From: Nitrospirota bacterium
Lineage (GTDB): Bacteria; Nitrospirota; Thermodesulfovibrionia; Thermodesulfovibrionales; Dissulfurispiraceae
NCBI GenBank assembly: GCA_963710375.1
Contig: CAVPZX010000002.1
Span: forward strand, 384,001 to 448,000
Reading direction: 5' to 3'
Length of the DNA: 64,000 nucleotides
The notes beneath the pieces are model-generated. The model was not told the DNA's origin and made no database searches. It was given only the letters and a program-made list of their open reading frames with translations. The position numbers and the translations under genes were made by a program. Positions 13,467-13,700 of this stretch are shown here, one piece after another (within the stretch, counting starts at the first letter, position 1; each line of letters begins with the position of its first letter).

Positions 13467-13685
13467 TCAAATTTTTGCTAATCCTGTGCCTACGCGCACC
13501 AGTTTGCCGGAGATTATTCTTGCCGCATTGCTGTCAAAAGTGTCTATTCTGCCCTCAAATGCAGCCTCAGCCAAAACTGCAGTCGTCCTCTGGAATGATG
13601 CAGAAGCAAGAAAACTTTTTGAAAATAACGGTATCTGACTAATCCCAAGCAGGGGTGATGTAACAGTCGTTTTTTATTCTGCTAT
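13467..13685 (-). pseudogene. stand-alone fragment resembling the RNA polymerase beta' (RpoC) C-terminal conserved region
   Basis: 68 open codons KTTVTSPLLGISQIPLFSKSFLASASFQRTTAVLAEAAFEGRIDTFDSNAARIISGKLVRVGTGLAKI align by eye with RpoC [58 protein letters not shown] is followed by ATA-GCA-GAA-TAA. Confidence 0.75.
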
Positions 13686-13700
13686 GTTAATCTCCTCAGT

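Follow-up and report, generated by a model that had tools for sequence, protein, structure and literature searches.

A terminal remnant of rpoC in a decayed conjugative element of Nitrospirota and the stand-alone beta-prime gene from which it derives

Background

Phages and prophages redirect transcription to their own genes by bringing either a self-sufficient RNA polymerase or only a sigma factor. In plants, the largest subunit of Pol IV and Pol V is a paralog whose bridge helix has diverged, and other subunits are common to the main enzyme. Regarding bacteria, multiplicity of rpoB or rpoC is reported as very rare, the plasmid copies being rpoB-rpoC pairs, and Thioploca ingrica is mentioned in one line, without context, as having two rpoC genes (PMC6403173). 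The closest precedent to the case described here comes from Nonomuraea and other actinomycetes, in which a duplicated rpoB, as rpoB(S) and rpoB(R), gives two polymerase forms per cell (PMC5431353).

The window examined in this study, a stretch of 64,000 nucleotides from a Nitrospirota bacterium of the family Dissulfurispiraceae, carries a short remnant of a second rpoC, the intact parent of which is found on conjugative elements of related genomes. As in the actinomycetes, the extra gene is one for a large subunit and would provide two polymerase forms per cell; here, however, it encodes beta-prime, is far more diverged, and belongs to a conjugative element with a sigma-like gene of its own. 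The plasmid copies and the two genes of Thioploca ingrica are likewise cases of extra or extrachromosomal rpoC, but those on plasmids are paired with rpoB, unlike the present one. Pol IV and Pol V share with it the paralogous largest subunit and the diverged bridge helix and differ in being eukaryotic and chromosomal. Like the phage enzymes and sigmas, the element may redirect transcription to its own genes, but it brings one core subunit and a sigma-like protein instead. Compared with housekeeping RpoC (TIGR02386), the parent is homologous over the full length, about 50% identical to that of the host, and keeps NADFDGD, both zinc sites and the trigger loop; on the other hand, it has no adjoining rpoB, lies in a conjugation and partition module, sits on long branches, is changed in the lid, clamp helices, zinc-finger surface and bridge helix, and in the same-genus copies is about 270 residues shorter. 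In the main text of the open-access full-text literature we found no description of a conjugative-element beta-prime, nor of a mobile element that brings one polymerase core subunit in place of a complete enzyme or regulator.

Results

A match to the end of RpoC

The first-pass annotation of the window had pointed to an uncalled minus-strand frame of 68 codons and matched it by eye to the last conserved block of RpoC, and both points were borne out. The frame, 68 sense codons at 13673-13470, is open with TAA before and TGA after it; it matches positions 1082-1144 of the 1147 of the TIGR02386 profile (E 1.7e-11) and, among solved beta-prime chains, best matches E. coli residues 1301-1364 (PDB, E 3e-10). 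The suggested check against RNA_pol_Rpb1_5 was negative, a Pfam scan of the frame at E 0.1 giving no match to this or any other family; the RpoC match comes from full-length models. The frame was also rightly judged too diverged for a recent copy of a normal rpoC: it shares 40% identity with the rpoC of the host, which forms a normal pair with the adjoining rpoB on contig C5. Upstream on the minus strand, GAGGAG (13697-13692), six nucleotides and ATA-GCA-GAA-TAA (13685-13674) are all present as described. An independent contig, assembled in a second study, covers 12806-14217 with one letter different; thus assembly error is not the cause of the junction or of the TAA. No ATG was found in frame within the 68 codons, and no Shine-Dalgarno sequence upstream of the CTG at 13652. 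The upstream 99-aa gene, labelled DUF1640-like, gave no DUF1640 match in Pfam.

Origin of the remnant

Homologues of the frame were searched for in 60 relatives, nine of them of the same genus. A second match, at 67-85% identity, was found in six of these nine, each time as the last part of a long frame (479-1130 codons), and the nearest match among 1.84 billion representatives was P0002, a protein of 1092 aa that is 90% identical and has the same terminal residues. Aligned with the window, all six same-genus loci show 73-91% DNA identity below 13652 and 26-34% above it. Because the identity breaks at this position inside a long gene, 61 codons are the tail of that gene, and the first seven codons of the frame are not beta-prime. 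The features of the region are the following.

13467..13652, minus strand: 3' stub of an element-borne second rpoC, a pseudogene fragment of 61 codons plus stop (DNA identity to six of six loci; 90% to P0002)
13653..13683, minus strand: junction DNA with the in-frame TAA 13676-13674 (bridged by the independent contig; no BLAST match in the element loci searched)
13677..13697, minus strand: decayed ribosome-binding site (RBS) and start of an unrelated 34-codon hydrophobic mini-gene (15 of 21 letters as in the intact start of relative G005)

In intact elements this mini-gene is located between the traG-like and transglycosylase genes. Window DNA from 14076 to 13684 is continuously homologous to the stretch after the element's traG-like gene in relative G009, and the RBS in G009 and G005 opens the same mini-gene, which is degenerate in G009; in G005, 11,428 bases separate its start from the rpoC breakpoint downstream. 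Since the RBS and ATA trace to a mini-gene 11.4 kb upstream, a deletion joined its start to the stub, and this origin means that about 11.4 kb with the transglycosylase, ATPase, VirB4, coupling protein and relaxase genes and most of rpoC was taken out. By this event the second rpoC would have been cut down to its tail, its first ~1,030 codons having gone together with the transfer genes.

The stub is almost certainly non-functional gene debris. It had been proposed that a gene of ~72 aa with a decayed start of its own lies here, as opposed to a chance break of a long one, and possibly a relic of a small family of beta-prime mimics. The RBS and ATA, however, belong to the unrelated mini-gene, the similarity ends sharply at 13652, and the homologues are C-termini of long frames. 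As for intact homologues of ~70 aa, neither the 1.84 billion representatives nor a length-limited search held a short family, the sole short candidate of the latter being P0001 (98 aa), itself another fragment, as beta-prime sequence continues further upstream in it. A stand-alone small gene was accordingly rejected, there being no in-frame ATG and the borrowed RBS and ATA being followed by TAA, and so was a family of intact short homologues, with P0001 a longer fragment and the nearest homologues the ends of long frames. It is very improbable that the stub is a small expressed mimic, or was one until its start decayed: although the deletion brought the RBS into the reading frame of the stub, no stop interrupts the 61 codons and the break falls exactly at the conserved LLG block, joining in frame is expected by chance one time in three, the TAA sits in the unmatched junction DNA, neither search held a family of short homologues, and the stub's two apparent private amino-acid changes are also found in the full-length P0002.

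The decayed element in the window

The window holds a decayed conjugative element with toxin-antitoxin-like modules and an IS21 insertion, of which the following further parts were recognized.

4845..7190, minus strand: PLD-family and HD-domain genes, end of the element (Pfam; DNA of relatives syntenic)
8463..9782, plus strand: the element's ParM-like actin and its partner gene (ALP_N E 2e-24; 92% and 71% to G005)
13701..14000, minus strand: element-native 99-aa gene with coiled coil and hydrophobic tail (87.5% protein identity to the gene just after the traG-like gene in G009)
14094..14554, minus strand: two-gene module, 85 aa and DUF2283, which we take to be, probably, toxin-antitoxin-like cargo (Pfam DUF2283 E 1.8e-15; similar DNA elsewhere in genomes of the family)
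14948..15614, minus strand: VapBC-like pair (PIN domain E 2.9e-15; VapB match weak)
15611..16381, minus strand: surviving transfer-region gene (76% identity to G005 C12:303693-304418)
17307..19551, plus strand: IS21-family insertion within the decayed element (matches to rve, Mu-transposase C and IstB)
19715..20254, minus strand: deletion-fusion frame with the C-terminal part only of a sigma-region-2-like protein (profile positions 158-250 only)

The last frame's N-terminal part resembles G005 278785-279147 and its C-terminal part G005 282235-282984, with the sigma-region-2-like remnant at 19715-20038. Only one of the proteins encoded at G005 283093-322138 has a homologue in the window, hence other deletions took further transfer genes.

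Two neighbours of the stub deserve a record of their own. An aldehyde ferredoxin oxidoreductase cluster (9813-12522, minus strand) lies between the stub and the ParM gene; it is also present in G003 (L021 15747-18218) and absent from the other aligned relatives. Directly after the stub, a thioredoxin-like/TPR gene (12806-13402, minus strand) has an in-frame TGA in a U-x-x-C context, which is kept in the window and in all five related loci checked, and the genome has a tRNA-Sec; this gene is probably a selenoprotein split by gene callers.

The intact parent gene and its context

Of 390 genomes of the class, 22 match a bridge-helix pattern; they belong to five families within a single order, and the reversed pattern, used as control, gave 0 matches. 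The parent gene encodes 1092-1358 aa, with all five Rpb1 domains in the copies scanned and the catalytic NADFDGD, the features by which the RpoC family is recognized; the same-genus copies are unbroken (1092-1105 aa) in four of six genomes, that of G003 being in three pieces and that of G006 in two. It was rejected as a housekeeping rpoC, since it has no rpoB directly upstream and lies outside the host copies in the tree. Wide contexts were read in 20 of the 22 genomes (all but G442 and G509), and in the 19 where adjacency was read (these without G604) no rpoB adjoins the element rpoC. Whole-genome searches for a second rpoB in 15 genomes gave one locus in 14 and none in G005, although a very remote beta-like gene could escape them. 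The earlier suggestion that the frame is a piece of a split polymerase from a mobile element holds as to the mobile element and is not supported as to the split: the parent is a whole beta-prime without a beta partner, and a two-subunit element polymerase was discarded, since no beta-like gene to pair with it was found in the 15 genomes, whether on the element or elsewhere.

The surroundings of the parent gene are those of a conjugative element, with relaxase, coupling protein, VirB4 and mating-pore genes. A Replic_Relax gene lies at most 6 kb upstream of rpoC in 17 of the 20 contexts, and Replic_Relax proteins are MobC relaxases (PMC5357655). In layout A (seven genomes) the order is coupling protein, relaxase, one or more genes and rpoC, usually then ParM, and F-type transfer and type IV pilus genes are present (Pfam); in layout B (ten genomes) it is ParB, relaxase and rpoC. 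The relaxase of G011 is ~17 kb downstream of rpoC, on the other side, and none was seen in the DNA examined of G006 and G007. Matches to VirB4, VirD4 and TraU/V/E/K/F/H lie near the parent gene: the G005 element has Replic_Relax, T4SS-DNA_transf, TraC/TraG P-loop, TrbI, TraV, TraU, TraE and TraK, and that of G574 has TraG_N, TraH, TraF, TraC, TraV, TraK and TraE, with transfer, primase, ribonucleotide reductase and clamp genes around it (Pfam). No tyrosine integrase (PF00589) was found in the G005 element span and no tRNA gene at 23 loci, while one integrase is near the copy of G337.

Outside these genomes, two motif scans of viral contigs gave 0 matches, and a plasmid collection gave 70 records, all below 60% identity, the 40 listed resembling ordinary rpoC. 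The catalytic-region motif is unspecific, most of its 115 matches being ordinary rpoC of other phyla, and so is the bridge-helix motif in metagenomes, with about 10 of element type among the 119 matches listed; the record titles of element-type matches name Nitrospirota. A phylum search with alignment A1, with two candidates scored per genome, did not separate paralogs from housekeeping copies.

Other genes were noted beside element copies. In G002 (L023 11529-12887) a 452-aa frame, group II intron reverse transcriptase-like by eye, stands directly upstream of the intact element rpoC, and at L229 15075-17948 SAVED-HNH and DncV-like nucleotidyltransferase genes (CBASS-like) stand downstream of an element beta-prime.

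Divergence and conserved residues

The element copies form one clade apart from host copies with SH-aLRT 100 in quick trees of 11 and later 22 copies, 14 rows having been dropped from the first, including one duplicate and one fused protein. The clade comes out as sister to the hosts' class (SH-aLRT 93) in the 22-copy quick tree with long branches, a placement that the earlier tree did not resolve and on which nothing here is built. The element rpoC is under purifying selection, with dN/dS of 0.11-0.21 over the full gene in six same-genus pairs; this is 5-10 times the 0.02 of the host pair (n=1, dS near-saturated), indicating that constraint is relaxed, and three of eight same-genus copies are broken, so that the element beta-prime is dispensable.

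N458, D460, D462, D464, R425, R346, R352, R933, H936 (E. coli numbering) and the second zinc site are kept in 22 of 22 copies, and both zinc sites in every element copy covering them. The sigma-facing surfaces, in turn, are changed. Identity to the host consensus in element copies is 0.40-0.45 for the lid, 0.51-0.56 for the clamp helices and 0.75-0.76 for the catalytic region, against 0.90, 0.81 and 0.84 in housekeeping copies of other phyla; the element copies are far more diverged than these in the lid, zipper, clamp helices and zinc-finger surface. R270 and F260 are changed in 21 of 21 copies and E295 in 12 of 21, while R275 is kept or K only and A302 changes only to S; R275, E295 and A302 are sigma contacts (PMC8321222).

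In the bridge helix, L783R is present in all 11 copies that were found without using it, the other 11 having been picked by a pattern containing it. Position 783 is an E. coli salinamide-resistance site (PMC4029172). Arginine at 783 was also seen in housekeeping rpoC adjoining rpoB in five records (L205, L210, L218, L240, L246). Prolines at 787 and 791 are found in all 10 layout-A copies, and 12 copies are without bridge-helix prolines. Natural bridge-helix prolines have been reported as exceedingly rare (PMC2988716); in the archaeal enzyme most single prolines there cut activity, with detectable activity retained at the 791 equivalent (PMC2776397, PMC2988716). Those of Pol IV and Pol V align with mj 824 (PMC2988716), and those of the element copies are at the equivalents of mj 818 and 822.

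Candidate sigma partners

At five layout-B loci a sigma70-family gene of ~200 aa lies within about 15 kb; Pfam finds regions 2 and 4 in the three proteins scanned and a profile finds them in two more, with a PDB sigma match at E 4e-24. In five further genomes no such gene was found at E 1e-12, in a search without positive control. Four layout-B loci (L340-L342, L345) have an RseP-like M50 peptidase gene after the element beta-prime; RseP-like proteases often release sigma factors.

In layout A a 250-aa protein is predicted to have a sigma-region-2 fold. For its first 80 residues, at least 21 of the 25 best structural matches are to region 2 of sigma factors, at Z 5.7-6.7 where the tool's safe Z is 8, from a model of pLDDT 61 and with the C-terminal part barely covered. 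Pfam matched neither region 2 nor region 4, Foldseek gave no E under 0.001 and HHalign only 20%, and the Atlas row records Sigma70_r2 in 34% of members. The protein is whole in G001, G002, G005, G007, G018 and G443, six genomes with unbroken beta-prime, whereas G000, G003 and G006, the three in which beta-prime is broken, keep a remnant; this joint decay may reflect only that the element as a whole is decaying. No copy was found in G009, G442 and G011, all with beta-prime (G009 and G442 being 84% complete), and G014 has a match to it without the bridge-helix pattern.

Discussion

The reading that we consider fairly probable is that the stub is a deletion leftover of a conjugative-element rpoC, the intact copies of which likely replace host beta-prime and form an alternative polymerase with the element's sigma-like factor. 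Since the element brings no beta and its beta-prime keeps the active site intact, assembly of this subunit with host alpha, beta and omega is likely; it would thus swap into the host polymerase, the changes in clamp and lid would give preference to the element's sigma, and the hybrid enzyme would transcribe element genes with the element-encoded sigma-like factor. Expression, assembly with the host subunits, catalysis, sigma pairing and transcription of element genes are all putative properties of the element beta-prime. More tentatively, the conjugative elements of one Nitrospirota order could encode a matched pair of beta-prime and sigma-like factor, giving an orthogonal polymerase on host alpha, beta and omega for element genes, and the window would then be a wreck in which both partners are stubs.

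It is rather unlikely that the stub is debris of a parent acting as a decoy or weak enzyme, one that assembles with host beta and, by tying up core subunits or by stalling on DNA, damps host transcription during transfer. The double proline in 10 of 22 copies, L783R in all, the loss of zinc-finger basic residues, a changed switch 2, the large deletions in same-genus copies and the relaxed selection would fit such a role, but all catalytic and trigger-loop residues checked are unchanged in each of the 22 copies, which span deep branches, 12 copies are without the prolines, and sigma genes lie on the same elements. That the parent serves DNA transfer itself, its hybrid polymerase priming second-strand synthesis or opening the transfer origin and hence standing behind the relaxase gene, is unlikely: Replic_Relax (MobC-type, PMC5357655) is indeed the most constant neighbour (17 of 20), and the lid and clamp changes could release the enzyme from normal promoters; however, the large G574 element has its own DnaG primase, the G011 relaxase stands far off on the other side, and the sigma genes suggest ordinary initiation. 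Quite improbable is a resistance allele shielding transcription from an antibiotic, lasso peptide or phage protein that inhibits host beta-prime. The salinamide-resistance site at 783 (PMC4029172) and the actinomycete rpoB duplicates that serve as alternative forms (PMC5431353) speak for it, yet the protein departs from that of the host at about half of its residues, for the most part on surfaces that face sigma and DNA, the gene has a fixed place in the transfer and partition module rather than in variable cargo, and L783R also occurs in some housekeeping copies adjoining rpoB.

The stub itself is inert as far as the evidence goes, and it marks the parent system. If the hybrid polymerase is active, it would be a third route for mobile DNA to seize transcription and a natural orthogonal polymerase, with the element-encoded sigma candidates as its putative partners. 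An active element beta-prime would also test bridge-helix and clamp function, given that natural bridge-helix prolines have been reported as exceedingly rare (PMC2988716).

Some records from other phyla also hold unusual beta-prime genes. A Dehalococcoidia record (L080 8684-12148) has a 1155-aa beta-prime on a long branch with non-ribosomal neighbours; it has no rpoB within 10 kb, falls outside the element clade, and is possibly an independent stand-alone rpoC. In records titled Bipolaricaulota and Thermotogae (L076, L077, L079, L084 and similar), rpoC carries a large insert and reaches ~1,670 aa, many of these records being without rpoB within 10 kb. An Omnitrophota record (L104) has a frame of 2382 aa with both rpoB and rpoC matches, likely a fusion.
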